Assembly: GCF_036365525.1 (NCBI RefSeq)
Contig: NC_090399.1
Span: 66,768,862 to 66,832,861 of the forward strand
DNA: 64,000 nucleotides
Direction: 5' to 3'
DNA from: Heterodontus francisci
Lineage: Eukaryota
Shown in pieces: positions 31,518 through 64,000 of this stretch. Under the pieces are notes generated by a model, which worked only from the letters and a program-made list of their open reading frames with translations, had not been told where the DNA came from and made no database searches. Made by a program: the position numbers and the translations under genes. The stretch's first letter is position 1, and the number at the start of each line of letters is the position of its first letter.

Positions 31518-33543
31518 CTTTTTTTTTCTTTTGGGCCTCCTTATCTCGAGAGACAATGGATACGCGCCTGGAGGTGGTCAGTGGTTTGTGAAGCAGCGCC
31601 TGGAGTGGCTATGAAGGCCAATTCTGGAGTGACAGGCTCTTCCACAGGTGCTGCAGAGAAATTTGTTTGTTGGGGCTGTTGCACAGTTGGCTCTCCCCTT
31701 GCGCCTCTGTCTTTTTTCCTGCCAACTACTAAGTCTCTTCGACTCGCCACAATTTAGCCCTGTCTTTATGGCTGCCCGCCAGCTCTGGCGAATGCTGGCA
31801 ACTGACTCCCACGACTTGTGATCAATGTCACACGATTTCATGTCGCGTTTGCAGACGTCTTTATAACGAAGACATGGACGGCCGGTGGGTCTGATACCAG
31901 TGGCGAGCTCGCTGTACAATGTGTCTTTGGGGATCCTGCCATCTTCCATGCGGCTCACATGGCCAAGCCATCTCAAGCGCCGCTGACTCAGTAGTGTGTA
32001 TAAGCTGGGGGTGTTGGCCGCTTCAAGGACTTCTGTGTTGGAGATATAGTCCTGCCACCTGATGCCAAGTATTCTCCGAAGGCAGCGAAGATGGAATGAA
32101 TTGAGACGTCGCTCTTGGCTGGCATACGCTGTCCAGGCCTCGCTGCCGTAGAGCAAGGTACTGAGGACACAGGCCTGATACACTCGGACTTTTGTGTTCC
32201 GTGTCAGTGCGCCATTTTCCCACACTCTCTTGGCCAGTCTGGACATAGCAGTGGAAGCCTTACCCATGCGCTTGTTGATTTCTGCATCTAGAGACAGGTT
32301 ATTGGTGATAGTTGAGCCTAGGTAGGTGAACTCTTGAACCACTTCCAGAGCGTGGTCGCCAATATTGATGGATGGAGCATTTCTGACATCCTGCCCCATG
32401 ATGTTCGTTTTCTTGAGGCTGATGGTTAGGCCAAATTCATTGCAGGCAGACGCAAACCTGTCGATGAGACTCTGCAGGCATTCTTCAGTGTGAGATGTTA
32501 AAGCAGCATCGTCAGCAAAGAGGAGTTCTCTGATGAGGACTTTCCGTACTTTGGACTTCGCTCTTAGACGGGCAAGGTTGAACAACCTGCCCCCTGATCT
32601 TGTGTGGAGGAAAATTCCTTCTTCAGAGGATTTGAACGCATGTGAAAGCAGCAGGGAGAAGAAAATCCCAAAAAGTGTGGGTGCGAGAACACAGCCCTGT
32701 TTCACACCACTCAGGATAGGAAAGGGCTCTGATGAGGAGCCACCATGTTGAATTGTGCCTTTCATATTGTCATGGAATGAGGTGATGATACTTAGTAGCT
32801 TTGGTGGACATCCGATCTTTTCTAGTAGTCTGAAGAGACCACGTCTGCTGACGAGGTCAAAGGCTTTGATGAGATCAATGAAAGCAATGTAGAGGGGCAT
32901 CTGTTGTTCACGGCATTTCTCCTGTATCTGACGAAGGGAGAACAGCATGTCAATAGTCGATCTCTCTGCACGAAAGCCACACTGTGCCTCAGGGTAGACG
33001 CGCTCGGCCAGCTTCTGGAGCCTGTTCAGAGCGGCTCGAGCAAAGACTTTCCCCACTATGCTGAGCAGGGAGATTCCACGGTAGTTGTTGCAGTCACCGC
33101 GGTCACCTTTGTTTTTATAGAGGGTGATGATGTTGGCATCGCGCATGTCCTGGGGTACTGCTCCCTCGTCCCAGCACAGGCATAGCAGTTCATGTAGTGC
33201 TGAGAGTATAGCAGGCTTGGCACTCTTGATTATTTCAGGGGTAATGCTGTCCTTCCCAGGGGCTTTTCCGCTGGCTAGGGAATCAATGGCATCACTGAGT
33301 TCCGATTTGGTTGGCTGTATGTCCAGCTCATCCATGACTGGTAGAGGCTGGGCTGCATTGAGGGCAGTCTCAGTGACAGCATTCTCCCTGGAGTACAGTT
33401 CTAGGTAGTGCTCAACCCAGCGGTCCATCTGTTTGCGTTGGTCAGTGATTATGTCCCCCGATTTAGATTTGAGGGGGGTGATCTTCTTGATGGTTGGCCC
33501 AAGAGCTCTCTTCATGCCATCATACATTCCTCTGATGTTTCAA
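31518..33543 (-). mobile_element. 5'-truncated RTE (BovB-like) non-LTR retrotransposon, young
   Basis: 10-bp TSD CTATTAGATT at 31508-31517 and 33544-33553, A-rich 3' tail on the minus strand, and an intact RT ORF. Confidence 0.92.
31578..33527 (-). CDS. RTE-clade reverse transcriptase with C-terminal C2H2-type motif (endonuclease lost by truncation)
   Basis: 649 aa without stops. Motifs KAPGKD, NYRGISLL, QCGFR, DLIKAFD, GVKQGCVLAP, LFADD, FTYLGS, RRLRWLGHV and CSTCGRACHSRIGLHSH. Confidence 0.9.
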   Translation of the reverse strand: MYDGMKRALGPTIKKITPLKSKSGDIITDQRKQMDRWVEHYLELYSRENAVTETALNAAQPLPVMDELDIQPTKSELSDAIDSLASGKAPGKDSITPEIIKSAKPAILSALHELLCLCWDEGAVPQDMRDANIITLYKNKGDRGDCNNYRGISLLSIVGKVFARAALNRLQKLAERVYPEAQCGFRAERSTIDMLFSLRQIQEKCREQQMPLYIAFIDLIKAFDLVSRRGLFRLLEKIGCPPKLLSIITSFHDNMKGTIQHGGSSSEPFPILSGVKQGCVLAPTLFGIFFSLLLSHAFKSSEEGIFLHTRSGGRLFNLARLRAKSKVRKVLIRELLFADDAALTSHTEECLQSLIDRFASACNEFGLTISLKKTNIMGQDVRNAPSINIGDHALEVVQEFTYLGSTITNNLSLDAEINKRMGKASTAMSRLAKRVWENGALTRNTKVRVYQACVLSTLLYGSEAWTAYASQERRLNSFHLRCLRRILGIRWQDYISNTEVLEAANTPSLYTLLSQRRLRWLGHVSRMEDGRIPKDTLYSELATGIRPTGRPCLRYKDVCKRDMKSCDIDHKSWESVASIRQSWRAAIKTGLNCGESKRLSSWQEKRQRRKGRANCATAPTNKFLCSTCGRACHSRIGLHSHSRRCFTNH

Positions 33544-34401
33544 CTATTAGATTAATAATGAGTAATAAGACCGATTTAGTTAGCACCCTAACAGTGGGAG
33601 AACATTGATCAAATAGTGATCATAATATGATTGAGTTCTCGTAGTGTTGAAATGGAGAAACATGAAACAGCCACTCAGATTCTAGAATTAGGTAATGCTG
33701 ATTTTAACAGGATAAGACACAGATTGTCCAGAGTAAACTGGACAAATCTATTAATGAGTAAAACAGAAGATCAGTGGGAGGTGTTCAAAAGAGAATTTAA
33801 AGTGATCCAAAAGCCGTTTATATCACTAAAGGGCAAGTGTTCTACCTGCCAAAAAAGACAGCTATGGGCAATTAAAAAGGTCAGAAATAACAAACTGTAA
33901 AAAACATACAGAAATGTAAAAAATAGCACAGATCCTGGTGAATGAGGAAGGTGCAAAGAACAGCAAAGGATGACACAGCAGATAGTAAGGGTTACAAGAA
34001 GAAGTACGAAAAGAAACTTGCAAGGGTGATCAAAATCAACACAAAGAACTTAGTTACATTCGGAAAAAGAGGGTCAGAAGCAAAGCAGTCCCTTTGAAAA
34101 CTGATGATGGTGATGTTGTCAATGAGAAGGAAATGGTGGACATGTTGAATAATTAATTTGTGTCAATATTTACAGTGGAGGAAGAGAAAAGAATGACAGA
34201 CTTCCCAAGGAAACTATTATTGGATCAGAGACAGGAACTTAATAAAATTAACATCAGTAATGTAACAGTAATGGAGAAATTAATGACACTAAAAAGTGAT
34301 AAATCCCCAGGATCAGATGGTTCTATCCCAGAGTTTGAAAGGAAGGAGGTGAGAACAGTGCAGATCCCTAACTATAATCTTCTCTCAGGTCTAACCCCGA
34401 C

Positions 34402-36213
34402 ATGGTCATCAAACCTGCAGACAAGGGTGGTGCTGTTGTTGTATGGCGTACCGACCTCTACCTTGCAGAAGCTCAACGCCAACTCACAGACACCTCTTCC
34501 TACCTCCCTCTGGACCATGACCCCACCACCGAACATCAAGCCACCGTCCAAAGGACTGTCACTGACCTCATCTCCTCTGGAGATCTTCCCTCTACAGCTT
34601 CCAACCTCATAGTCCCGCAACCCCGGACAGCCCGCTTCTATCTCCTTCCCAAAATCCACAAACGGGACTGTCCCGGCAGACCCATTGTGTCAGCCTGCTC
34701 CTGCCCAACTGAACTTATTTCTTCCTATCTAGACTCTATCTTTTCTCCGCTGGTCCAGTCTCTTCCCACCTACATCCGTGACTCTTCTGACGCCCTACGT
34801 CATTTTGACAATTTCCAGTTTCCTGGTCCCAACCGCCTCCTCTTCACTATGGACGTCCAATCGCTCTCCACCTCCATCCCCCACCAGGATGGTTTGAGGG
34901 CTCTCCGCTTCTTCCTGGAACAGAGGCCCAACCAGTCCCCATCCACCACCACCCTCCTCCGCCTGGCTGAACTTGTTCTCACATTGAACAACTTCTCCTT
35001 CAACTCCACGCACTTCCTTCAAGTAAAAGGTGTCGCTATGGGTACCCGCATGGGTCCTAGTTATGCCTGTCTTTTTGTGGGATATGTCGAGCATTCTTTG
35101 TTCCAGTCCTACTCAGGCCCCCTCCCCCAACTCTTTTTCCGGTACATTGATGACTGTATCGGTGCCGTTTCCTGCTCCCGCCCCGAACTCGAAAACTTTA
35201 TCAACTTTGCTTCCAATTTCCACCCTTCTCTCACCTTTACATGGTCCATCTCTGACACTTCCCTTCCCTTCCTCGACTTCTCTGTCTCCATCTCTGGGGA
35301 TAGGTTGTCTACCAATATCCATTATAAGCCCACTGACTCCCACAGCCACCTCGACTACACTTCTTCACACCCTACCTCCTGTAAGGACTCCATTCCATTC
35401 TCTCAGTTTCTCCGTCTCCGACGCATCTGCTCTGATGATGCTACCTTCCATGACGGTGCTTCTGATATGACCTCCTTTTTCCTCAACCGAGGATTTCCCC
35501 CCACTGTGGTTGACAGGGCCCTCAACCGTGTCCGACCCATTCCCCGCACCTCTACCCTCACCCCTTCCCCTCCCTCCCAGAACCGTGACAGGGTTCCCCT
35601 TGTCCTCACTTTTCATCCCACCAGCCTCCATATCCAAAGGATCATCCTCCGCCATTTTCGCCACCTCCAGCGTGATGCCACTACCAGTCGCATCTTCCCC
35701 TCCCTTCCCCTGTCAGCATTCCGAAGGGATCGTTCCCTCCGCGACACCCTGGTCCACTCCTCCATTACCCCCACCACCTCGTCCCCGTCCCAGGGCACCT
35801 TCCCTTGCAATCGCAGGAGGTGTAATACCTGCCCATTTACCTCCTCTCTCCTCACTATCCCAGGCCCCAAACACTCCTTTCAGGTGAAGCAGCGATTTAC
35901 TTGTACTTCTTTCAATGTAGTATACTGTATTCGCTGCTCACAGTGTGGTCTCCTCTACATTGGGGAGACCAAGCGCAGACTGGGTGACCGCTTTGCGGAA
36001 CATCTCCGCTCAGTCCGCAAGCAGGACCCTGAGCTTCCGGTTGCTTGCCATTTCAACACTCCCCCCTGCTCTCATGCTCACATCTCTGTCCTGGGATTGC
36101 TGCAGTGTTCCAGTGAACATCAACGCAAGCTCGAGGAACAGCATCTCATCTACCGATTAGGCACACTACAGCCTGCCGGACTGAACATTGAGTTCAATAA
36201 TTTCAGAGCATGA
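34402..36213 (+). CDS. Penelope-type reverse transcriptase plus GIY-YIG endonuclease
   Basis: 603 aa uninterrupted. Motifs IKPADKGG, LPKIHK, GRPIVS, DVQSL, GVAMG, RYIDD, FLD, CNRRRCNTC, VVYCIRC...YIGET, HFN and GLN. Confidence 0.92.
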   Translation: MVIKPADKGGAVVVWRTDLYLAEAQRQLTDTSSYLPLDHDPTTEHQATVQRTVTDLISSGDLPSTASNLIVPQPRTARFYLLPKIHKRDCPGRPIVSACSCPTELISSYLDSIFSPLVQSLPTYIRDSSDALRHFDNFQFPGPNRLLFTMDVQSLSTSIPHQDGLRALRFFLEQRPNQSPSTTTLLRLAELVLTLNNFSFNSTHFLQVKGVAMGTRMGPSYACLFVGYVEHSLFQSYSGPLPQLFFRYIDDCIGAVSCSRPELENFINFASNFHPSLTFTWSISDTSLPFLDFSVSISGDRLSTNIHYKPTDSHSHLDYTSSHPTSCKDSIPFSQFLRLRRICSDDATFHDGASDMTSFFLNRGFPPTVVDRALNRVRPIPRTSTLTPSPPSQNRDRVPLVLTFHPTSLHIQRIILRHFRHLQRDATTSRIFPSLPLSAFRRDRSLRDTLVHSSITPTTSSPSQGTFPCNRRRCNTCPFTSSLLTIPGPKHSFQVKQRFTCTSFNVVYCIRCSQCGLLYIGETKRRLGDRFAEHLRSVRKQDPELPVACHFNTPPCSHAHISVLGLLQCSSEHQRKLEEQHLIYRLGTLQPAGLNIEFNNFRA

Positions 36214-36581
36214 CAGCCCCCCACTTTACTTTCATTTTTAGTCATTTTTAGTTATTTTTTCTTCCTTTTTTTTGCATTCCTTTTTACATTTTTTGCATTT
36301 ATTTCATTTCATCTTAGTTTGTTCAGTTTGCTTCCCCACTGTTTTTTTCAGGTTGTTTTTCTTCAAGTTTGCACTTGCTGATGTTCTATGTTCAGTATAT
36401 TCACACCTAATCTGTACTAATGCTTTGTCTTTCAAAACACCATTAACATATTGTTTGCCTTTGCTCCGTGACCTTTTGGTCAGCTATGTGGCCTGGTCCA
36501 ATCTGCACCTTCTCCTTTGTTATCTCTTGCCCAACCCCCACCTCACTTGTTTATAATCTGTGACTTTTCTAATATTTGTCC

Positions 36582-36616: not shown

Positions 36617-36975
36617 TCTGCTTCTCTTTCCACAGATGCTGCCAGACCTGCTGAGTGAATCCAGCATTTCTTGTTTTTGTTATAATCTTCTGAAGTTTGC
36701 TTGATTCAGGAACTGTTCCTTAAGATTGGAAAATTGTGCCTGTCAGTCTGCTATTGAAGGAAGGTGGAAATTATCGACCAGTTAGCTTAACATCTGTTAT
36801 CAGAAAATTACTAGAGACAATAATTTAATAGGGAAATTCAGCACCTTGAACATTGTCAGCTGATCATAGAAAACCAGCATGGATTTGATATTGAATTGTT
36901 TGAAGAGGTGATTAAAGGAATAGGGGAATGTCTATGGATGTTATTTTTATGGTCTTCCAGAAGGCATTTGATAAA

Positions 36976-37421
36976 TCACAGAATCACAGAATAATACAGT
37001 GCAGAAGAGGCCCTTCGGCCCATCGAGTTAGCACCGATGCATTAAAGACACCTGACCTGTCTACCTAATCCCATTTGCCAGCACTTGGCCCATAGCCTTG
37101 AATGTTATAACGTGCCAAGTGCTCATCCAGGTACTTTTTAAAGGATGTGAGGCAACCTGCCTCTACCACCCTCCCAGGCAGTGCATTCCAGACCGTCACC
37201 ACCCTCTGGGTAAAGAAGTTCTTCCTCAAATCCCCCTTAAACCTCCCACCCCTCACCTGAAACTTGTGACCTCTCGTAACTGACCCTTCAACTTAGGGGA
37301 ACAGCTGCTCCCTATCCACCCTGTCCATGTCCCTCATAATCTTGTACACCTCAATCAGGTCACCCCTCAGTCTTCTCTGCTCCACCGAAAACAACCCAAG
37401 CCTATCCAACCTCTCTTCACA
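36976..37421 (-). mobile_element. CR1 LINE 3' fragment inserted into the older CR1
   Basis: Minus strand reads RGGRFKGDLRKNFFTQRVVTVWNALP, with an (ATTCTGTG)2 tail. TSD GATAAA at 36970-75 and 37422-27; removing the insert restores the host KAFDKVP. Confidence 0.9.
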
Positions 37422-37912
37422 GATAAAGTTCCTCAAAAGAGACTGTTTAGTTAAAGGTGAAGCTCAGGGAATTGAAGATAAATTATTGACCTGTTAGGAA
37501 GTTAGCTGAGTGACAGGAGACGGAGAGTAGGGATAATGGACAGGTAGTGTAATTGTCAGGATGTGATTAGTCATGTCCCACAAGGATCTGTGTTGGAGTC
37601 TCAACTATTCACTGTATTTATTAACAAACAATGAGATAGAAAATCACATATCCAGATTTGTAGACGACACAATAATAGACAGTACTGTAGGCAGTGTAGA
37701 TGGAAGCATAAAATTACAAAGAGATTAATTGAAGAGATAAAATTGATAGATTAAGTGAATGGGAAAAACTATGGCAAATGGATTTCAATGTAGGCAAATG
37801 TGACATCATCCACTTTGGACCTATGAAAGGTAAACCAGAGTACTTTCTGAATGGTGAAATACTAGAAACAGTGGTGGTCCAGGTTCTAGGTACGCAGATC
37901 ATTAAAACGTCA

Positions 37913-40077: not shown

Positions 40078-40905
40078 AGTGCCTTATCAATCCCACCATG
40101 GCTATGCAAGACCACCTACATGTGGTCATATCCTGCTCTCAGCAGGTGGGAGGGGGTGGGTTTGGGTCCATACCAGCAATGATGTGATATGTACATCTTA
40201 ATAAGGCAGGAGGAAATCATTCACACATAGTCTGAGAGGTCATTGTCTGAGAACTGTTGTAGACAATGTTTGATGTTGTAATAGTCTGAGACGACCACCT
40301 TAATGACATGTCCTGACTCGGGTGTGTGTCGGGTTTCTGTGTGTGTCCTTGTTCAGTTAAACTGTCTTTATTTTTAACAAGTCCAATATAAGCCCCAATG
40401 ATGAGGTCTTTGGTCGGAATTCCTCTTCTCCCTATGTCCCGATGTCCTCCGCACTCCATGTTTTTACCAGCCTTTGTCAAACTCTGCACATGAAAGCACA
40501 TTAAATCACCAAGTCCCAGTTTATATCTGTAACAAGATATTGTTACAATTTGTCAGAACAGTTAAAACACAAACTGAAATTCAGCAAAAACTGTTACAAT
40601 CAGATAGCTGAATAAAAACATGGCATAAAAATACATTCCCCTCGCAGCACGTACAGAAAATAATCTAAAAGACTAATGAAATGCTGACCTTTATATCTAG
40701 AGGTCCAGGATATAAGGGGGTAGAAGTCACACCTCAGCTATACAAAGCCCTGGTTAGCCTGGAGTTCCTGTGAACAGTTCTGGATACCAGGATGAATATA
40801 TAGGTCTTGGAGGGAGTGCAGCACGGATTTACCAGAATGATGAAATGAGAACAGAAAGTGCCGGAAATACTCAGCAGGTGTGGCAGCATCTGTGGAGAGA
40901 GAAAC

Positions 40906-40946
40906 ACAGTTAACTTTTTAAGTCTGTGACCCTTCATCAGAACTGT
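40906..40946 (-). ncRNA. Degenerate hammerhead-like motif in the second PLE
   Basis: Minus strand reads ACAGTT-CTGATGA-A-GGGTC-ACA-GACTT-AAAAA-GTT-AACTGT: canonical CUGAUGA, 6-bp stem I, GAAAC box mutated. Confidence 0.5.
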
Positions 40947-41314
40947 CAAAGGTTAGAAATGTAACAGTCTTTGAGCAAGTGGAGGAGGGGAGGGGGTGAA
41001 GTAGAACAAGAAGGACAGACTGTGATCGGACGGAGGGGGAGATGTTAAATGAGAGATGTCATGGAATATAATTGTAAATGAAGTGCTAAATAGTTACAGC
41101 AAAAGACAAAGCACAGTCCAGAGAGAGTGTTAAAGGCAGAATAATGAACAGGTTTGTACGAAAACAAAAACATGAAAAATAAGTTTGAGACTAACACATG
41201 GTTAAAAAATAAATAAATAAATCTGAAATATATATTTAAAATAAATACACAAAAAAAATGGGGCTCATGTTCTGAAATTATTGATCTTAATATTGAGTCC
41301 AGAAGGATGTAGAG

Positions 41315-42405
41315 TGCTTGAAGTCTTACTTCAATTGTATAGAACGTCAGTTAGACCGCACCTGGAGTACTGTGTGCAATTTTGGTTCCCTTACCTTAGG
41401 AAGGATATTATTGCCACAGAGAGAGTGCAACAAAGGTTCACTGGACTTGTTCCCAAGATGGCAGTTCTGGTCACCTCATTACAGAAAGGATGTAATTGCA
41501 CCAGAGAGGGTACAGAGGAGGTTTACAAGGATGTTGCCAGGACTGGAAAATGCAGCTATGAGGAAAGATTGGATAGGCTGGGGTTGTTCTCTTTCGAACA
41601 GAGAAGGCTGAGGGGAGATCTGATTGAAATGTATACAATTTTGAGGGGCTTGGATAGAGTGGAGGTGAAGGGTCTATTCACCTTAGCAGAGAGGTCAGTG
41701 ACGAGGGGGAATCGATTTAAAGTGATTGGTACAAAATTAGAGGGGAGATGAGGAAAAACTTGTTCACCCAGAGGGTGGTGGGAGTCTGGAACTCACTGCC
41801 TGAAAGGGTAGTTGAGGCAGAAACCCTCAACTCGTTCAAAAGGAGTCTGGATATACACCTCAAGTGCTGTAATCTGCAGGGCTACGGACCAAATGCTGGA
41901 AGGTGGGATTAGAATAGGTGGATCGTTTTTTGGCCGGCAGGGGCATGATGGGCCAAGTGGCCTCTTTCTGTGCCTTAAACCTTCTATGATTCTATGTCGG
42001 GACTGTCCTATGAAGAGAGATTGGGGAAACTGGGCCTGTATTGTCTAGAGTTTCGAAGAATGTGAGGTGATCTCTTTTAAACCTACAAAATACTTAAAAG
42101 GATAGACAGAGTAGATGCAGGCAGCTACAGGTGATCTGTTCAACAAATCATTTCCTCAATCCAGCAACAGTTCAAAATTAAAGTTCATATGACAAAACAA
42201 ATGTGCCTCGTTCTTGGCAGGTGGGGGCTTACATGAACATGTTTAAAGCAGAGATTGACAGATTTCTAAGTACAAATGACATAAGGGGATATGGGGATAG
42301 TGTGGGGGAAAAAGGCATTGAAGTGGATGATCAGCCATGATCATATTGAATGGCAGAGCAGACTCGATGGGCTGAATGGCCTACTCCTCCTGCTCCTATG
42401 TTCCT
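41315..42405 (+). mobile_element. Two nested CR1 3' fragments (inner copy ~41461-41995 inside an outer copy)
   Basis: LQLYRTSVRPHLEYCVQFW followed by a second QFWSPHYRKD...RFTRMLPGL ending in a CTATGATTCTAT tail. The outer copy resumes (GLSYEER-like) and ends with CCTATGTTCCT. Confidence 0.8.
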
Positions 42406-44664
42406 AGTCAAAAAATGAGGTGCTGTTCCTCGAGCTTGCGTTGATGTTCACTGGAACACTGCTACAGACCAAGAACAGAAATATGGGTATGAGAGCAGGA
42501 AGGAGAATTAAAATTGCAAGCAACCGGAAGCTCAGGATCATGCTTGCAGTCCGAGCAGAGGTGTTCTGCAAAGTGGTCGCCCAGTCTGCGTTTGGTCTCC
42601 CCAATGTAGAGGAGACTGCACTGTGAGCAGTGAATTGAAAGAAGTACAAGTAAATCACTGCTTCACCTGGAGGAAGTGTTTGGGAACTTGGATAGTGAGG
42701 AGAGAGGAGGTAAAAGGGTAGGTATTACACCTGGGATTGCAGGGGAAGGTGTCGTGGAAAAGGGAAGGTGTCGGGGGTAATGGAGGAGTGGACCAGGGTG
42801 TCACTGAGATTATTGATCCTTTCGGAATGCTGACAGGGGAGGGGAGGAGAAGCTGTATTCGGCATCACATTGGAGGTGGTGGAAATGGCGGAGGATGATC
42901 CTTTGGATGTGGAGGCTGGTGGGGTGGAAAGTGAGGACAAGGGGAACCCTGTCACGGTTCTGGGAGGGAGGGGAAGGGGTGAGGGAAGAGGTGCAGGAAA
43001 TGGGCCGGACACGTTTGAGGGCCCTGTCAACCACAGTTGGGGGAGGTATCCTTGGTTGAGGAAAAAGGAAGACCTATCAGAAACGCTGTTGTGGAAGGTG
43101 GCATCATCAGAGCAGATGCGTTGGAGACGGAGAATGTGAGGAAGTGTAGTCAAGGTAGCCGGGGGAGTTGGTGGCTTATAATAAATACTAGTGGACAGCC
43201 TATTCCCAGAGATGGAGACAGAGAAGTCGAGGAGGGGAAGTGTCAGAGATGGATTATGTGAGGGTGGGAGAAGGGTGAAATTTGGAAGTAAAGTTGATAA
43301 AGTTTTCCAGTTCGGGGCGGGAGCAGGAAACGGCATCAATACAGTCATCAATGTACCGGAAAAAGAGTTGGGGGAGGGGGCCTGAGTAGGACTGGAACAA
43401 GGAATGTTCGACATATCCCACAAAAAGACAGGCATAACTAGGACCCATAGCAACATCTTTTATTTGAAGGAAGTGAGTGGAGTTGAAGGAGAAGTTGTTC
43501 AATGTGAGAACAGGTTCAGCCAGGCGGAGGAGGGTGGTGGTGGATGGGGACTGGTTGGGCCTCTGTTCCAGGAAGAAGCGGAGAGCCCTCAAACCATCCT
43601 GGTGGGGGATGGAAGTGTAGAGAGATTAGACGTCCGGAGTGAAGAGGAGGCGGTTAGGGCCAGGAAACTGGGAACTATCAAAATGACGTAGGGAGTTGGA
43701 AGAGTCACGGATGTAGGTGGGAAGAGATTGGACAAGGGGAGAAAAAATAGAATCAAGATAGGAGGCAGTAAGTTCAGTGGGGCAGGAACAGGCTGAAGTG
43801 ATGGGTCTACTGGGACAGTCCTGTTTGTGGATTTTAGGACGGAGATAGAAGCAATCTGTTCGGAGTTGTGAGACTGAGGTGGGAAGCTGTAGAGGGAAGA
43901 TCTCCCGAGGAGATGAGGTCATTGATAGTCCTGGATATGGTAGCTTGATGTTTGGTGATGGTGTCATGGCCCGGGGGAGGTAGGAAGAAGTGTCTGTGAT
44001 TTGGCACTCAGCCTCTGCAATGTAGAGGTCGGTCCACCAGACAACAGCAGCACCAGCCTTGTCAGCAGGTTTGATAACAATATCAGGGTTAGAATTGTAT
44101 TCCATTGAATTTTGCTCTTAATTTACCAGAATAATACCTGGACTCCAAGGGTTAAGCTATGAGGAGAGAATACACAAACTAGGATTGTATTGCATTGAAT
44201 TTAGGTGAAGGGGTGATTTGATGGCCGTTTTTAAGATATTAATGGAGATAGAGAGAAACTTTTTCCACTGTTTGGGGAGTGTAGGACTCGGAGCATTGTC
44301 GAGAAATTAGAGCCAGACCTTTCAGCAGTGAAATTAGGTGATGCTTCTCACAAGGGTGGTAGAAGTTTGGAATTCTCTTCCACAACAGCAACAGTTAATT
44401 TTAAAATGAAGTAGTAGTTTTTTTGTTAGCCAAAGGTATGAAGGGATATGAGGCAAAGGTGGGTCGATGGAATTAGATTGCAGATCAGTCATGAACTCAT
44501 TGAATGAGTAAATGGCCTACTCCTGTTCCTATGTACTTATCTTCCTATGAGTGGTGGTCCCAGGGGGAAGGTGACTGGGAATGATAAAGTTGTCACTATC
44601 TTCCGTCTCTCTCCTCTCTGACTGTCAGTGTCTGGTCACTAACTGAGAATTCCTTGTTTTACAG

Positions 44665-48719: not shown

Positions 48720-50335
48720 AGGAAGATGCTTCTCAAAACTCCTGGAATTCTTTGAGGAGGTATAGACATGGTGATGAAGGAAATGTGGTGAATGTAGTGT
48801 ACATGGACTTTTGAAAAGCCTTTGACAAGCTGACATAGAGATGACTAAATGAGCACTTTACATCTGCCTTCACAAAAGGAGAGGATGCTGCCAATATCAC
48901 AGTAAAGTAGGATATGATGAACAGAATAGAAATAAAGAGGAGATTATTAAATAGTTGGTCGGGCACAAAGTAGAAAAGTCTGCTGGTCTAGATGGAATGC
49001 ATGATGGATTATTGAGGGAAGTAAGGTTGGAAATTGAGGATGTTCTGACCACAATCTTCCAATCCTCTTCGGATATGGGAGTGATGCCAGAGGACTGGAG
49101 AATTATAAATGTTACATCCCTATTCAAAATGATGAGAGGGATAAACCTGGTAACTACAAACCAGTCAGTTTAGCTTTAGTGATGTGGAAACATCTTGATA
49201 TGATAATGAAAGAAAAAATATAGTCACTTACAAAATATATAATAAATGACATCCAGCTATTGTGTGTATGAACTTTCAAAGGGCCACATAATTTTAATTA
49301 GCAAGATTGAAGCCCATGGGATTAAAAGGACAGAGACTGCATGGAGATGAAATTGGCTAAGAGAAAAGGTGGAATAGTGCTGAACGCTTGTTAGAAGATT
49401 GGAACAGACTTCAGGAGGATCTAGACTGGTAAAATGGACAGATACATGGAGCTGAAATTCAATTCAGATGTGTGAGATGTTACATTTTGGTCGGAAGACT
49501 GAGGAAAACATCCTGGGAGTTGCCATTGACCAGAAACTTAACTGGAGCAGCCATATAAGTGCCTACAAGAGCAGGTCAGAGGCTGGGAATTCAGTGGTGA
49601 GTAACTCACTTCCTGACTCCCCAAAGCCTGTCCACAAGGCACAAGTCAGGAGTGTGATGGAATACTCTCCACTTTCCTGGATGGGTGCAGCTCCAACAAC
49701 ACTCAAGAAGCTCAGCACCATCCAGGACAAAGCAGCCAGCTTGATTGGCACCCCATCGACAAACATTCACTCCCTCCACCACCGACGCACAGTGGAAGCA
49801 GTGTGTACCATCTACAAGATGCACTGCAGCAACTCACCAAGACTCTTCCGACAGCACTTTCCAAACCTGCGATCTCTACTACCAAGAAGAACAAAGGCAT
49901 AAAATCACCACCTCCAAGTCACACACTATCCTGACTTTGAACAATATCGCTGTTCCTCGCTGTCACTGAATCAAAATCCTGGAACTCCCTTCCAAACAGC
50001 ACTGTGGGTGCACCTACCCCACACAGACTGCAGTGGTTCAAGAAGGCACCTCACCACCACCTTCTCAAGGGCAATTAGGGATGGGCAATAAATGCTGTCC
50101 TGGTCAGTGACGCCCACATCCCATGAATGAATAAAAAACAGCAATATGAACGAAAAGGTACAATTTTAAAGGGGCTGCAGGTACAGAGACCTGGGGTACA
50201 AATCTTTGAAGATGGCAGGACAAGTTGATCAGGCTGTTTTTAACAAATGTTTATGTGATCCTGGGCTTTATAAACAGAGGCATAGACTCCAAAATCAATC
50301 AAGTTCTGTTAAACCTTTATAAACTACTGGTTCAG
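48720..50335 (+). mobile_element. Heavily degraded CR1 fragments
   Basis: Remnants of VYMDF.KAFDK, KSAGLDGMH, MPEDWRIINVTSLFK and KC..LHFG-like motifs, partly out of order. Confidence 0.65.
49508..50138 (+). mobile_element. Second copy of the L2/CR1-group LINE 3' end
   Basis: Homologous to ~47540-48219 (AQVRSVMEYSPLSWMGA, IQDKAA) with the same ATGAATGAATAAAAAA tail. Confidence 0.82.
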
Positions 50336-50430
50336 CAAATTACAGGCTTCCCTTGTGTCAGGGGTGTTCAGACCGAGGTCACCCATCAATGATTCATCTT
50401 GACAATCCCAATTGGGTTTGACAAGCTTTT

Positions 50431-53400
50431 AGAGTCATAGAGTTATACAACACAGAAACAGGTTCTTCGGCCCATCATGTCTGTGCCAGCCATCAAGCAC
50501 CGAACTGTTCTAATTCCATTTTCCAGCACTTGGCCCGTAGCCTTGTATGCTGTGATGTTTCAAGTGCTCATCTAACTACTTCTTAAATGTTGTGAGGGTT
50601 CCTGCCTCTAACACCTCTTCAGGCAGTGGGTTCCAGATTCCAACCACCCTCTGGGTGAAATTTTTTTCCTCCAATCCCCTCTAAACCTCCTGCACCTTAC
50701 CTTAAATCTATGCCCCCTGGTTATTGATCCCGCCGCTAAGGGAAAAAGTCTCTTCCTATCTAACCTATCAATGCCCCTCAAAATTTTGTAGACCGCAATC
50801 ATGTCCCTCCTCAGCCTTCTCTGCTCTAAGGAAAACAACCCTAGCCTATTCAGTCTCTCTTCATAGCTGAAATGCTCCAGCCCAGGTAACATCCTGGTGA
50901 ATCTCCTCTGCACCCTCTCCAGTGCCATCACATCCTTCCCATAGTGTGGTGACCAGAACTGTACACAGTACTCCAGCTGTGGCCTAACTAGCATTTCATA
51001 CAGCTCCATCACAACCTCCCTGCTCTTATATTCTATGCCTCGGCTAATAAAGGCAAGTATCCCATATGTCTTCCTAACCACCTTATCTACCTGTGCTGCT
51101 GCCTTCAGTGATCTATGGAAAAGTACAGCAAGGTCCCTCTGACCCTCTGTACTTCCTACGGTCCTACCATCCATTGTCTATTCCCTTGCCTTGTTAGTCC
51201 TTCCAAAATGTATCACCTCACACTTCTCAGGATTAAATTCCATTTGCCACTGCTCCGCCCATCTTCCCAGCCCATCAATATCGTCCTGTAATCTAAGGCT
51301 TTCCTCCTCACTATTTACAACACCACCAATTTTCGTGTCATCTGTGAACTTACTGATCATACTTCCTATATCCACGACTAAATCATTAATGTACACTACA
51401 AACAGCAAGGGTCCCAGCACCGATCCCTGTGGTACTCCACTGGTCACAGGCTTCCACTCGCAAAAACAAGTCTCGACCATTACCCTCTGCCTCCTGCCAC
51501 TAAGCCCATTTTGGATCCAATTTGCCAAATTGCCTTGGATCCCATGGGCTCTAACCTTCTTAACCAATCTCCTATGCGGGATCTTATCAAAAGCCTTACT
51601 GAAGTCCATGTAGACTACATCAACTGCTTTACCCTCATCTACACATCTAGTCACTGTCTCAAAAAATTCAATCAAGTTAGTTAGACATGATCTCCCCCTG
51701 ACAATGCCGTGTTGACTATCCCTGATTAATTCCTGCCTCTCCAAGTGGAGATTAATCCTGCCCCTCAGAATTTTTCTGATAGTTTCCTGACTTTAATGTT
51801 AGACTCAATGGCCTGTAATTACCTGGTTTATTCCTGCTACCCTTCTTGGATAATGGTACCACATTCGCTGTCCTCCAGTCCTCTGGCATCTCTCCTGTGG
51901 TCAGAGAGGATTTGAAAATTTGTGTCAGAACCCCTGCTAGCTCCTCCCTTGCTTCACATAACAGCCTGGGATACATCTCATCTGGGCTTGGGGATTTATC
52001 TAATTTAAGCCCGCTAAAACAGCTAATACTTCCTCCCTTTCAATGCTAATATGTTCAAGTATATCACAATCCCCCTCCCTGATCTCCACACCAACATCGT
52101 CCTTCTCCATAGTGAACACAGATGAAAAGTAATCATTTAAAACCTCACCGATATCCTCCGGCTCTACGCACACATTGCCACTTTGGTCTCTAATGGGCCC
52201 TACTCTTTCCCTGCTTATCCTCTTGCCCTTGAGCAAGAGAGTAACCAGGGAAAGGGTTGGGCCACTTAAGAACACAGGAGGGAATCTATGTGTGGAGCCA
52301 GAGGAAATGGGCGAGGTACTAAATGAGTACTTTGCATCAGTATTCACCAAAGAAAATGACTTGGTGGATGATGAGTCTAGGGAAGGGAGTGTAGATAGTC
52401 TGGGTCATGTCGTTATCAAAACGGAGGAGGTGTTGGGTGTCTTGCAAAGCCTTAAGGTAGATAAGTCCCCAGGGCCTGATGGGATTTACCCCAGAATACT
52501 GAGGTAGGCAAGGGAAGAAATTGCCGGGGTCTTAACAGAAATTTTGGTATCCTCATTGGCTACAGATGAGGTCCCAGAGGACTGGAGAATAGCCAAAGTT
52601 GTTCCTTTGTTTAAGAAGGGTAGCAAGGATAATCCAGGAAATTATAGGCCGGTGAGCTTTACGTCAGTGGTCGGGAAATTATTAGAGAGGATTCGTCGGG
52701 ACAGGATTTACTCCCATTTGGAAACAAACGAACTTATTAGCGAGATGCAGCACAGTTTTGTGAAGGGGAGGTCGTGTCTCACTAACTTGATTGAGTTTTT
52801 TGAGGAAGTGACGAAGATGATTGATGAAGGAAGGGCAGTGGATGCTGTCTATATGGACTTCAGTAAAGCCTTTGACAAGGTCCCTCATGGCAGACTGGTA
52901 CAAAAGGTGAAGTCACACGGGATCAGAGGTGAGCTGGCAAGATGGATACAGAACTGGCTCGGTCATAGAAAACAGAGGGTAGCAGTGGAAGGGTGCTTTT
53001 CTGAATGGAGGGCTGTGACTAGTGGTGTTCTGCAGGGATCAGTGCTGGGATCTTTGCTGTTTGTAGTATATATAAATGATTTGGAGGAAAATGTAGCTGG
53101 TCTGATTAGTAAGTTTGCGGACGACACAAAGGTTGATGGAGTTGCGGATCGTGATGAGGATTGTTAGAGGATACAGCAGGATATAGATCGGTTGGAGACT
53201 TGGGTGGAGAAATGGCAGATGGAGTTTAATCCGGACAAATGTGAGGTAATGCATTTTGGAAGATCTAATACAGATGGAAGTATACAGTAAATGGTAGAAC
53301 CCTTAGGAGTATTGACAGGCAGAGAGATCTGGGCGTACAGGTTCACAGGTCACTGAAAGTGGCAACGCAGGTGGATAAGGTAGTCAAGAAGGCATACGTC

Positions 53401-54125
53401 ATGCTTGCCTTCATCGGTCGGGGCACAGAGTATAAAAATTGGCAAGTCATGCTGCAGCTGTACAGAATTTTAGTTAGGCCACTTAGAATATTGCGTGCAA
53501 TTCTGGTCGCCACACTGCCAGAAGGACGTGGAGGCTTTGGAGAGGGTACAGAAGAGGTTTACCAGGATGTTGCCTGGTCTGGAGGGCATTAGCTATGAGG
53601 AGAGGTTGGATAAACTCAGATTGTTTTCACTGGAACGATGGAGGTGGAGGGGTGACGTGATAGAGGTTTACAAAGTTATGAGCGGAATGGACAGAGTGGA
53701 GAGTCATAAGCTTTTTCCCAGGGTGGAAGAGTCAGTTACTAGGGGACATAGGTTTAAGGTGCGAGGGGCAAAGTTTATGGGGGATGTGCGAGGCAAGTTT
53801 TTTACACAGAGGGTGGTGAGTGACTGGAACTTGCTGCCGGGGAAGGTGGTGGAAGCAGGTATGATAATGACGTTGAAGAGGCATCTTGACAAATACATGA
53901 ATAGGATGGGATTAGAGGGATATGGATCCCGGAAGTGCAGAATGTTTTAGTTTAGAAAGGCATCAAGATCGGCGCAGGCTTGGAGGGCCAAATGGCCTGT
54001 TACTGTGCTGTACTGTTCTTTGTTAAGATTTATAAAACGCCTTAGGACTTTCCTTTATCTTACCCGCCAGTGTTTTCTTATGTCCCCTCTTCGCTCTTCT
54101 AATTACTATTTGAAGTGCCCCTTTA
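50431..54125 (-). mobile_element. CR1 LINE (RT region to 3' tail; segments 50431-52230 and 54025-54125) interrupted by a + strand CR1
   Basis: ORFs 51178-51744 (QHG, DFSKAFD, GVPQGSVLGP, FTDD) and 50608-51174 (VRPQLEYCVQFW). The segment at 54025-54100 reads IRRAKRGHKKTLAGKIKESPKAFYK on the minus strand, collinear with KGKRISRER at 52230. Confidence 0.9.
52231..54024 (+). mobile_element. CR1 LINE, 5'-truncated, from a different subfamily
   Basis: Motifs KSPGPDGIYPRIL, NYRPVS, DFSKAFDKVPH, QGSVLG, FADDTK and FFTQRVVSDWN, with a TGTTCTTTGTT tail and several stops/frameshifts. Confidence 0.92.
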
Positions 54126-54187
54126 TTATAACATTGGCAGATTCAATCATGCAGACAGTATTCAAGAAAAAATTAAGAGAAGAAATA

Positions 54188-54920
54188 GGCTGGAATTTTA
54201 TGTTGGGGTGGTGGCCTCACTCACTGACTAAAAAGCCGGGCCTGGAAGCCACAGATCAATTTTACATGGCCCAGGTCCTTAATTGGCCTCGGTCAGGATC
54301 TCTGCACCTCTGAGGCAGGATGACCCGCCTCCTAGATCTGACGGCCAATTAGAAGGCTGGCAGCTCTTTGGTCCCGGGAGCGGTGGCCACTGCTGGGGCT
54401 GCACCAAGCCAGAAGAGGACGATGGACATCACCCTTCAGGAAGCTAAGAAGGTCTCGGACCTCGCTGGGGACAATCAGCTGGGCCCAGGCGAGGGTGGAG
54501 GGAGTCCACGAGCACCGCAGGCGGTGAAGTGGAGGGGGGGGGGTGGCGGGTGAGCAAGTATTAAAGGGGAAGGTCGGGGCTTTTGGGGATTGGGGGAGGG
54601 CCCTCCATGGGGCACAGGATGCCCGATCAGGAGGGCCACAACCCCCCACCTTGCCTGCAAGGAGGTTGCCAGGTATTACTGGGTGACCTCCTCAGGTTCC
54701 GAAGTGCCCGTCTGCCGCTGGTAATATACCAGCAGCAGTGGATGAAGGCCCTTAGGTGGCTGTTTACCACCTTTCCTGCTGCTGGTAAAATAGCAGTGGG
54801 AGCAGGTAGGTGACGGACACTGCGCCCTCCACCTCCAGCTTGATTTTGCGCTCCCCCCATCATCACCACCTCCTCGCCCATTCCTGGGGGTTGGTGGGGA
54901 GGGTGCTTAAAATTTCAGCC
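54188..54920. mobile_element. Non-autonomous DNA transposon (MITE-like; possibly PIF/Harbinger)
   Basis: Terminal inverted repeats GGCTGGAATTTTA (54188-54200) and TAAAATTTCAGCC (54908-20), 12/13 match, around a GC-rich non-coding interior. Confidence 0.6.
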
Positions 54921-60514: not shown

Positions 60515-63250
60515 ACTGCCTCTTCCTGCCTCCTCCCCCACCTACCTCCTCTTCCCCTTACTTCCCCCCTCCTCCTCCTCCTCGTCCTCCTACCTCCTCC
60601 TCTTACTGCCTCCTCGTCTACCTACCTCCTCTTCCCCTTCCTCCCCCACATCCTTCTCTACCACCACCTCCTCCCCCCCTGCCTCCTTGTCTACCTACCT
60701 CCTCTTCCCGTTCCTCCCCGCCACACCCTCCACCTCTTCTCCTCCTCCTCTCCTCCTCCTCTTCCAGCCTCCTCCTCCACTTCCTCCTCCTCATCCTGCC
60801 ACCTCCTCTTCCTGCCACCTTCTCCTCTTCCTTCCTGCCTCCTCCTCTTCCTTCCTTCTCCTCTTCTCCTCCTCCTTTTCTTACCATCTTATCTTCCTGC
60901 CTCCTCCTCGTCCTGCCTCCTCCATTTGTCCTCCTCCTCTTCCTGCCTCCTCCATTTCTCCTCCTCCTCTTCACCTCCACCTCTTTCTGCCTCCTCCTCC
61001 ACTTCCTGCCTCCTCCTCCTCTTCCTGACTCCTGTGGTTCTCCCCCTCCTCTTCCTAACTCCTCCAATTCCGACCTCCTCCTCGTCTTCTAGGATGCTAC
61101 CTCATCTTCCTGCCTCCTCCTCGCCTCCTCCACCTCCTGCCTCTTCCCCCTCTTCCTACCTCCTCTTTTTCCTACTCCTCTTTGCCTCCTCCACTTCCTG
61201 CCTCCTCCCATTTCTGCCTCATCCTCATCCCCTCCTCCTCCTTTTCCGGCCTCCTCCTCCTCTTCCTGCCTCCTCTACTCCTCCTCCTCTTCCTACCTCC
61301 TCATCTTCATGCCTCGTCTACCTGCCTCCACCTCTTCTTCCTCTTCCTCCTCTTTGCCTCCTCCACTTCCTGCCTCCTAATCCTCCTCTTCCTACCTCCT
61401 CCTCCTTCTGCCTCCACATCTTCGTCTCTTTCTCTTCCTGCCTCCTCCTCTTCATGCTTCCTCCTCATCCTGCCTCCTCCTCTTCCTGCCTGCTCCTTCT
61501 GCCTCCTCCTCCTTTTCCTACCTCCTCCTCTTGCTGCCTCTTCTTCTTCCTCCTCCTCCTCTTCCTACCTCCTCCTCTTGCTGCCTCTTCTTCTTCCTCC
61601 TCCTCTTCACCTCCTCCTCTTCCTGCCTCCTCTTATGCTCCTCCTCATCTCCTCCTCCTCCTCTTCCTTCCTCCTACTGCTCTTCTCTCCTCTTCCTGCC
61701 TCTTCTTCTCCCGACCTCCTCCTCTTCCTGCCGCCCCCTCTTTCCTCTTCCTTCCTCCTCCTCCTCTTCTTGCCTACTCCTCTTCTCCCCTACTCTTCCT
61801 GCCTCCTCCTCTTCCTGCCTCCTCCCCTTCTCCTCCTCCTCCTCTTCTCCTCCTCATTCCTCCTCTTCCTCTTATTCCTCCTCCTCTTCTCCTCCTCCTC
61901 TCCTCTTCTTGTTCCAACCTCCCCCTCATCCGGCCACCTCCTCTTCCTGCCTCCTGCTTTGTCCTCCTCCTCTTCCTGCCTCTCTTCCTCTCCTCCTTCT
62001 CCTGACCTCCTCCTCTTTATCCCCCTCCTCTTCCTGCCTCCTCCTCCTCCTCTTCTTGCCTCCTTCTCTTCTCCCTGCCTCCTCCTCTTCTCCTCTTCCT
62101 GCCTCGTCCTCCTCTTGACCAGCTCCTCTTCCTGCCTCTCCTCTCCTTCCTTCTCCTCTTCTTCACCTCTTTTCCTGACACCTCCTCTTCTTCTTCCTCC
62201 TCCTCCTCCTCTTATTCCTCCTCCTCTCCTCTTCTTCTTCCTGCCTCCCCCTCATCCGGCCTCCTCCTCTTCCTGCCTCCTGCTTTGTCCTCCTCCTCTT
62301 CCTTCCTCCTCCTATACCTCCTCCTCCTGCCTCCTCCTATACCTCCTCCTCCTCTTCCTGCCTCCTCCTCCTCTTCCTGCCTCCCCCTCATCCTGCCTCC
62401 TCTTCTCCTCCTCCTCTTCCTGCCTCCTCCTCCTCTTCTTTCCTGCCTCCTCTTCCTTCCTGCCTCATCTTCTTCCTGCCTCCTCCTCTTTTCCCTGCCT
62501 CCTCCTCTTCTCCCTGCCTCCTCCTCTTCTCCCTGCCTCCCCCTCCTCTTCCTGCACTCTGCACTTCCTGCCTCCTCCTCTTCCTGCCTCCTCCTCTTCC
62601 TGCCTCCTCATCTTTCTGCCTCATCTTCTCCTCCTCTTCTCCTCTTCCTGCCTCCGCCTCTTCTCCTCCTCCTCCTGCCTCGTCCTCTTCTGCTCCTCCT
62701 CATCTCCTCCTCCTCCTCCTCTCCTTCCTCCTCCTCTTCTTCCTCCCCCCTCCTCTTCTTCCCCCTCTTCCTGCCTACTCCACTTCCTGCCTCCTCCTCT
62801 TCTCCTCCTACCCTTCCTGTCTCCTGCTCTTCTTCCACCTCCTCTCACTGACTTCTCATCTTCTTCCTCCCCTCTTCCTGCCTGATCCTCTTCCACTTCC
62901 TCCCACTCTTCCTGCCTCCTCTTCATCCTCCGCCTCTTCCTGCCTCCTCCCCTTCCTGCCTCCTCCCCTTCTCCTCCTCCTCTTCTCCTCCTTCTCTTCT
63001 TGCCTCCTCCCCTTCCTGCCTCCTCCTCTTCTCCTCCACCTCTTCCTGTCTCATCTTCCTGCATCCTCCTCTTCCTTCCTCCTCCTCTTCCTCTCCTCCT
63101 ACTACCTCCCCCTCTTCTTCCCCCTCCTCCTTTTTGCCTCCTCCTCATCCTGTCTCCTCCTCTTCTCCTCCTCCTCTTCCTGCTTCCTCCTCCTTCGCTT
63201 CCTGCCTCCTCCTCTATTTCCTCCTCCTCCTCATCCTGCCTCCTCACCAT
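60515..63250. repeat. 2.7-kb pyrimidine-rich (CCT)n / CCTCTTCCTG low-complexity tract
   Basis: The top strand is almost entirely C/T, with recurring CCTCCTCTTCCTGCCT. Confidence 0.97.
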
Positions 63251-63254
63251 CCCC

Positions 63255-64000
63255 ACAATAACACCACTGTCTGCCCCTCACCCACTTTCAGTCCTGCTCC
63301 CTGCACTCACTTGCCGACTCTCAGCACCCCCACTCCCCACTCACTCACTCTCAGTTCCCCTCCCTCCCACTCTCAGTTCCCCCCACTCACCCACTCTCAG
63401 TTCCCCCATCCACTCACCGACTCTCAATCCTGCCCCCCGCCCTCAATTGCCAACTCTCAATACCTCCACTCCATACTCACTCACCTACTCTCAGTTCTGC
63501 CCCTCACTCACCCACTCTCATCCCCCCCGCCCACTCATCCACTCTCAGCCCTCTCCCTGCCCTCACCTGCCAACTCTCAGTACCCCCACTCACTCACTCA
63601 CTCTCAATCCTGCCCCCCCACCCTCACTTGCCGACTCTCAGTGCCCCCACTCACTCACCCACTCTCAGGCCTGCTCCCCGCCCTCACCTGCCGACTCTCA
63701 GTGCCATCACTCCCCACTCACTCACCCACTCTCAGTCCTGTCCCTCGCCCTCACTTGCCGACTCTCAGTACCCTCACTCACTCACCCACTCTCAGTCCCC
63801 CTGCCCACTCACCCACTTTCAGTCCTGCCCTCTCCGCCCTCACTCGCCGACTCTTAGTGCCCCCACTCACTCACCCACTCTCAATCCTGCCCCCCCACCC
63901 TCACTTGCCGACTCTCAGTGCCCCCACTCACTCACCCACTCTCAGTCCTGCTCCCCGCCCTCACCTGCCGACTCTCAGTGCCATCACACCCCACTCACTC
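63255..64000. repeat. C-rich minisatellite, ~60-bp unit, running off the 3' end of the window
   Basis: Unit CCCCACTCACTCACCCACTCTCA[A/G]TCCTGCCCCCCACCCTCACTTGCCGACTCTCAGTGC. Confidence 0.9.

Follow-up and report, generated by a model that had tools for sequence, protein, structure and literature searches.

An antisense nest of two CR1-like LINEs with a near-mirror 5' end in Heterodontus francisci

The window analyzed here, 64,000 nucleotides (nt) of Heterodontus francisci DNA (NC_090399.1, positions 66,768,862 to 66,832,861 of the forward strand), contains a CR1-like long interspersed element (LINE) inserted antisense into a related CR1-like LINE. The two antisense elements form an imperfect palindrome of 3.6 kb. 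We confirmed that this locus is an antisense nest of two CR1-like subfamilies with a near-mirror 5' end: the insert starts at the base that mirrors, exactly or within 2 nt, the point at which the host is broken. The structure itself is a nested, 5'-truncated LINE insertion, which is a known kind. It was probably made by ordinary target-primed reverse transcription (TPRT), with the mirror register arising by chance. A homology-guided mechanism at this locus is possible, and one case cannot show that the mirror register exceeds chance.

Structure of the nest

The host element lies on the minus strand. Its 3' part, which covers the linker of open reading frame 2 (ORF2), the reverse transcriptase (RT), the C-terminal region and the 3' end, forms the left arm of the palindrome (50431..52230), and its 5' piece of about 100 nt (54025..54125) follows the insert and runs to the element's own 5' end at ~54115-54128. 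The insert, a member of the other subfamily, lies on the plus strand and forms the right arm (52231..54022); it is 5'-truncated and ends with ...GTACTGTTCTTTG. The arms are separated by TT (52229..52230), which is the AA of a host Lys codon and, judged from the sequence and a mirror scan, the left-hand copy in what may be a 2-bp target-site duplication. Another TT (54023..54024) stands between the insert and the 5' piece of the host, and its assignment is ambiguous: it can be the last bases of the insert tail (3' microhomology), the right copy of the duplication, or both. Translation gives KGKRISRERVGP downward from 52230, SKRVTRERVGP upward from 52232 and AKRGHKKTLAGKIKESPKAFYK at ~54115-54029. 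The coordinates and translations of the original prediction, which had been made from the sequence alone, were correct.

Alignment of the reverse complement of 50431-52228 with 52231-54024 revealed that 1255 of 1774 aligned columns are identical (70.7%) and that the arms are collinear from the junction through to both 3' ends, with 59-77% identity per 100-column window. ORF2 homology through the RT and the C-terminal region is present in both arms. P0001, a relative of ORF2 with 942 amino acids (aa) and with RT and endonuclease domains (PF00078, PF14529, PF03372), was matched in tblastn by the host left arm over aa ~379-941 (48-65%) and by the insert over aa 381-941 (58%). The first 91 aa of the insert are 81% identical to P0002 and 78% identical to P0003, and named protein matches include those from Heterodontus and Scyliorhinus; cartilaginous fishes are among the relatives. 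Both LINEs are presumably CR1 rather than L2, a label of the original prediction that is based on motifs. The 3' end of the insert is intact (the end of ORF2 and a 3' untranslated region), and its 5' end is truncated at aa ~380. The insert ends in ...GTACTGTTCTTTG(TT) and the host in ...CTATGACTCT, with neither poly(A) nor a clear repeat run in either. The insert has 39 CpG and the host 23, which is weakly consistent with a younger insert. At 88% likeness, copies of the host subfamily are many in organisms A and D and scarce in B and C, and each of the four has many copies of the insert subfamily; the shared word fraction is 0.22-0.26 for organisms B, C and D. If the insert arrived after the host, its family would have remained active after the split of those organisms.

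It had also been claimed that the minus copy resumes at 54025 as part of the same host copy. The right piece of the host (54115-54029) corresponds to aa 348-376 of P0001 with 72% identity, and the first codon of the left arm is that of aa 379 (tblastn). Because aa 348-376 is followed by aa 379 on the shared ORF2, the host is one continuous element. The interruption amounts to two codons on P0001, and 4 nt of these are present (6 nt if TT is not duplicated).

Contigs of four of 22 runs (X1, X5, X6 and X8) were mapped at 88% likeness, at which paralogues dominate the output; the figures rest on the matches listed (32 pieces shown, 352,318 more, and 2025 joints and 10,555 loose ends beyond). A joint from 52230 to 54030 was found in at least seven contigs among these matches (four in X1, none in X5, two in X6 and one in X8). 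We considered that these joints might represent an empty allele. This was rejected, because their summed depths of 108, 25 and 43, compared with 8-9 for exact-locus contigs, indicate paralogues. Depth at 54077 was 167,738, 61, 116 and 696 in X1, X5, X6 and X8, respectively; in the host arm at 52087 it was 509,841, 66, 122 and 6,277, and in the insert at 52354 it was 885,408, 103,834, 286,475 and 4,452. The profile at 54077 tracks that of the host arm and is unlike that of the insert. This indicates that the piece at 54025 belongs to the host family, and the candidate explanation that it is insert-family sequence was rejected by the same profile. Thus, the register on P0001, the contig joints and the depth profile all agree with the claim of a single host copy, and alignment, tblastn and contig joints bear out the nested antisense insertion as a whole.

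None of the 32 contig pieces listed crosses 52230/52231, and the junction rests on the assembly. Such an absence would fit an assembly chimera or a fold-back duplication, yet either is extremely improbable. A fold-back would give near-identical arms, which is not what the arm windows show. The arms are different subfamilies and not a fold-back, as the original prediction had already concluded from their divergence; their 3' ends and their depth profiles across four organisms are unlike. Furthermore, host sequence past the insert is in register, and both outer ends match exact contigs from organism A with 0 differences, 50259-50453 (across the host 3' end) and 54068-54286. An artefact at 52230/52231 is therefore unlikely, because the arms belong to different subfamilies and the host continues in register.

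Two observations concern the flanks of the nest. In at least 12 X1 contigs among the matches listed, 50138 is joined to 50430. At other loci, the A-rich tail of the neighboring LINE thus seems to directly abut the tail of the host family, and a tail-to-tail insertion preference is possible. To the right of the locus, a 27-nt inverted repeat (54712-54802) with a 37-nt spacer and 81% complementarity lies within a repeat.

Anatomy of the junctions

The left junction reads ...CTTGCCC TT | GAGCAAG... and the right junction ...GTTCTTTG TT | AAGATTTATAAAAC.... The 5' truncation of the insert falls on a third codon position, and the homologous host codon is the one that is broken. When the first 30 nt were scanned for mirror matches without gaps, the register 52228<->52231 peaked at 24/30 and the 19 other registers gave 6-13/30; the mirror centre is TT, and 52228 mirrors 52231. 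The loop of 2 nt that had been predicted exists in this geometric sense only, since 52227/52232 mismatch and the minimum-energy DNA fold has a loop of 6 nt. Identity does not rise toward the centre, since 20% of 30-column windows do as well as the first one. Gene conversion near the centre was rejected for this reason. A sense insertion that was later inverted, and a minus element that arrived later than the plus element, would each require exact extra breakpoints and were also rejected.

Of 95 related proteins covering the site, 83 have R, K or N as the residue preceding the junction, and one has L. Among the 13 most insert-like proteins, the residue before SKRV is K in nine, R in three and N in one, and L does not occur. 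The candidate reading of TT as the insert's own Leu codon was rejected on these counts. The K or R before SKRV indicates that the first insert base is the third of a Lys/Arg codon, with TT lying outside the insert sequence. The 5' join is direct, with a microhomology of 0. The TT at both insert ends fits either of two readings, a 2-bp duplication with 2 nt of AT-rich host sequence lost, or a blunt insertion with a match of the tail, so that the duplication length is 0-2 bp; from the sequence, TT may be a 2-bp target duplication. If so, the 5' base of the first nick (52228) exactly mirrors the last base of the complementary DNA (cDNA) at 52231 and the offset is 0, and on the blunt-insertion reading the offset is 2 nt. 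In this single case, truncation therefore coincides with the mirror partner of a nick at an offset of 0 or 2 nt. No inverted 5' segment of the insert's upstream sequence was found at the junction, where the left arm is of host type from 52228 and no more than TT could qualify.

Ordinary insertion and the chance of a mirror register

In an ordinary insertion, the endonuclease would nick the host at TCTTAA/GGGC (or TCTT/AAGG) in its sense strand, and the insert tail would pair with the target via TT/AA. Reverse transcription would then stop after ~1.8 kb, and a short overhang of the top strand would receive the cDNA end in a direct join. The palindrome would be a by-product, as an antisense nest of related LINEs always yields an inverted repeat. 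Nests with near-zero spacers would be rare, yet they would be the ones that readers notice. For 5'-truncated LINEs, a short duplication and a join that is direct or based on microhomology are usual results (PMC4245944).

It had been argued that random truncation is unlikely to land on the mirror base. We calculated a null model with exponential insert lengths of mean 400-1500 nt, which were assumed and not fitted to this genome. Under this model, the offset is no larger than 2 nt with a probability of 0.0017-0.0062 per antisense nest, or in one per 161-588 nests; with arms of at least 1.5 kb, the probability is 3.5e-6 to 2.6e-4, or one per 3,846-285,714 nests. By eye and tblastn, two antisense CR1-in-CR1 nests were found in ~30 kb of non-satellite DNA in the window. 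At one-tenth of this density, an assumed 3-Gb genome would hold ~20,000 nests, among which 34-124 near-mirror nests and 0.07-5 long-armed ones are expected by chance. The model thus suggests that the mirror register is rare per event and not rare per LINE-dense genome or across many genomes, and only the first half of the argument stands.

The other two CR1-in-CR1 nests in the window are both off the diagonal on which the insert 5' end and the host break share a consensus coordinate, which also favors a chance register. The antisense one, 36973-37422 (-) within ~36679-37873 (+), has a host break after aa 595, in the KAFDK|VP motif, and an insert that starts from ~aa 835, about 240 codons off; it shows an apparent duplication of 5-7 bp around GATAAA. 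The sense one, 41466-41996 (+) within ~41311-42125 (+), has a host break at ~aa 832 and an insert from aa 803, about 29 codons upstream, with a possible 3-nt CAG microhomology. It is near the diagonal and not on it, although sense orientation gives the cDNA direct homology.

We also searched contigs outside the genome. A pattern of RT motifs had 0 matches in viral contigs and found 98 loci in metagenome contigs. None of these 98 loci matched either arm with more than 120 bits in blastn, and among the 96 loci with ORF2 hits, one (L003) had hits on both strands, with the 5' end of its insert beyond the contig. Relatives of P0005 were found in neither genome nor viral contigs.

Several points weigh against an ordinary insertion with a chance register. 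Given a break ~1796 nt from the 3' end, the model probability of an offset of 2 nt or less is 1.4e-4 to 1.0e-3, which is tight per event. The number of nests is extrapolated from one unusually LINE-dense window, and the two control nests are few and have older hosts. If TT is duplicated, the offset to the first nick is exactly zero. Moreover, the direct join without microhomology is unlike most inserts of zebrafish ZfL2-1 in PMC4245944, in which microhomology or extra bases accompany all cases from DT40 cells and most from HeLa cells.

Alternative explanations

The main alternative is that the flank pairs with a retrotransposition intermediate in mirror register and thereby fixes the 5' truncation at the homologous base. 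We hold this to be possible and less likely than an ordinary insertion. The antisense orientation leaves two pairings for it, RNA with the top strand or cDNA with the bottom strand. Annealing of the flank to RNA followed by a template jump, or pairing of the cDNA followed by trimming, is more plausible than the hairpin ligation that had been proposed. Hairpin ligation fits poorly if TT is duplicated, because 12 of the 13 insert-like proteins have K/R, and none has L, before SKRV; the loop bases would then be copies of the host top strand. In the annealing version, second-strand cleavage and 5' resection would leave a host-antisense top-strand tail that pairs with the RNA as far as the last TT of the tail, opposite AA. 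RT would displace the annealed 3' tail of the top strand and then jump onto it, copying TT as AA, as in an abortive twin priming. Twin priming in its classical form, which had also been suggested, requires an inverted 5' segment, and here at most 2 nt could be one. The abortive form predicts a direct join and a 2-nt offset, as seen, and would retain the possible duplication. Of the first 30 nt of the top-strand end, 24 are complementary to the insert RNA, and the end lacks such complementarity to the cDNA; microhomology at the join is 0. Annealing of the top strand to RNA and a jump onto the target 3' end have each been described (PMC2912911, PMC2837659, PMC2718515), and for L1 it has been proposed that the reciprocal end is resected to leave a 3' overhang (bioRxiv 10.1101/2024.12.14.628481). 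On the other hand, this is a single case with no inverted 5' segment longer than 2 nt, and both the jump in mid-template and its combination with annealing are inferred by us. ZfL2-1, a LINE of related type with overhangs of ~5 nt, yielded no 5' inversions in PMC4245944, and for R2 5' junctions microhomology annealing is favored over jumping as the explanation in PMC2718515. Taken together, this version is unlikely.

In the pairing version, which was the first model of the original prediction, the growing cDNA would base-pair beside the nick with the sense strand of the host, and a flap nuclease would cut its unpaired 3' part flush before direct or hairpin joining. The cDNA end is flush with the 5' base of the nick if TT is duplicated (52231 vs 52228), and the predicted cDNA-flank duplex has -20.9 kcal/mol over 30 nt and -53.2 kcal/mol over 100 nt. 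XPF-ERCC1, which cleaves 3' flaps, has been proposed to cut L1 intermediates (PMC10584689, PMC10760644), although it did not nick the RNA-DNA hybrid in PMC10584689. The cDNA would also have to quit the RNA and, at no more than 65-77% identity, enter a duplex, 5' resection would probably remove the strand needed for pairing, and the loop bases are not derived from cDNA on the duplication reading, which weakens direct hairpin ligation. We regard the pairing version as likewise unlikely. Later loss of a spacer is highly improbable. A longer insert would have come first, the inverted repeat would have been extruded and the unpaired loop excised. This likewise gives a join without microhomology, and cleavage of hairpins at L1-made ends has been proposed (bioRxiv 10.1101/2024.12.14.628481). 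Because the host side lost at most 2 nt, however, the loop deletion would need to end exactly at the old junction, and arms with 70.7% identity and no rise near the centre pair poorly. Rearrangements of palindromes are known to add central asymmetry and are not known to remove it.

Repeats elsewhere in the window

The non-satellite part of the window is a nest of LINEs. Two inverted copies, which we take to be Penelope-like, share 84% identity; one is at 34390-36220 (+) and the other at 40853-41317 and 42399-44093 (-), split by a CR1 nest at 41311-42400. A LINE at ~31520-33545 (-), presumably RTE-like, is inserted in an old plus-strand CR1; it has a young appearance and a single long RT frame that is open (tblastn 33485-32112). 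The remainder includes a 47-bp satellite at 1-28010 (580 copies, 90% matches), a 72-bp G-rich tandem repeat at 28321-30778 (34 copies) and C-rich repeats at the window end (60519-64000).

Implications and comparison with known systems

The cause of 5' truncation of LINEs is described as unclear in PMC10760644. Antisense LINE-in-LINE nests are a natural experiment on whether flank homology sets the truncation point, and existing repeat annotation can be used for it. The sign of the offset could separate RNA annealing from cDNA pairing. A homology-set mechanism, if real, would be a novel form of 5' joining: a target homologous in the 'wrong' polarity would help to dictate truncation, and LINE-dense genomes would make long spacer-free imperfect palindromes from their own repeats. 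An excess of nests on the diagonal would reveal a route to kilobase palindromes and double-stranded RNA, and would bear on truncation in R2-type gene insertion tools. With no such excess, this locus is an ordinary nest.

Homology-guided joining in sense orientation is reportedly known, as Gilbert et al. 2002/2005 are said to have found chimeras of new L1 cDNA with resident L1. A description of mirror-register antisense nests was not found in the titles and abstract openings of the papers that literature searches listed, and the supplements of PMC4245944 and bioRxiv 10.1101/2024.12.14.628481 may contain cases; 'target analysis of nested transposons' is named in PMC2912911. The present locus is like insertions of ZfL2-1/CR1-1_DR, Nimb-2_DR and L1 (PMC4245944) in its 5' truncation, its short or absent duplication, the short match between tail and target at the 3' end and the split host. 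It differs from insertions of the ZfL2-1 type in that the target is an antisense related LINE and the 5' end lies at the mirror base, and its direct join belongs to a minority class for ZfL2-1 in the same paper.

L1 twin priming (PMC2837659, PMC2912911, PMC10760644) is alike in that the top strand's 3' end is complementary to an internal RNA site, at which the non-inverted part begins. In contrast to twin priming, there is no inverted 5' segment longer than 2 nt here, the duplication is 0-2 bp and not 10-20 bp (PMC4245944), and the complementary stretch, a microhomology in twin priming, is here the long homeologous arm of an older element. Annealing of R1/R2 cDNA to the upstream 28S target (PMC2718515) is another case of a 5' junction fixed through element-flank homology, but there the cDNA pairs with the top strand, and here the orientation is reversed. 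The inverted duplications and fold-backs associated with L1 (bioRxiv 10.1101/2024.12.14.628481) also place an inverted repeat with a small hairpin beside a LINE insertion. Their arms are copies of one sequence, whereas the arms of this nest come from two subfamilies with 70.7% identity, and its host continues past the insert.

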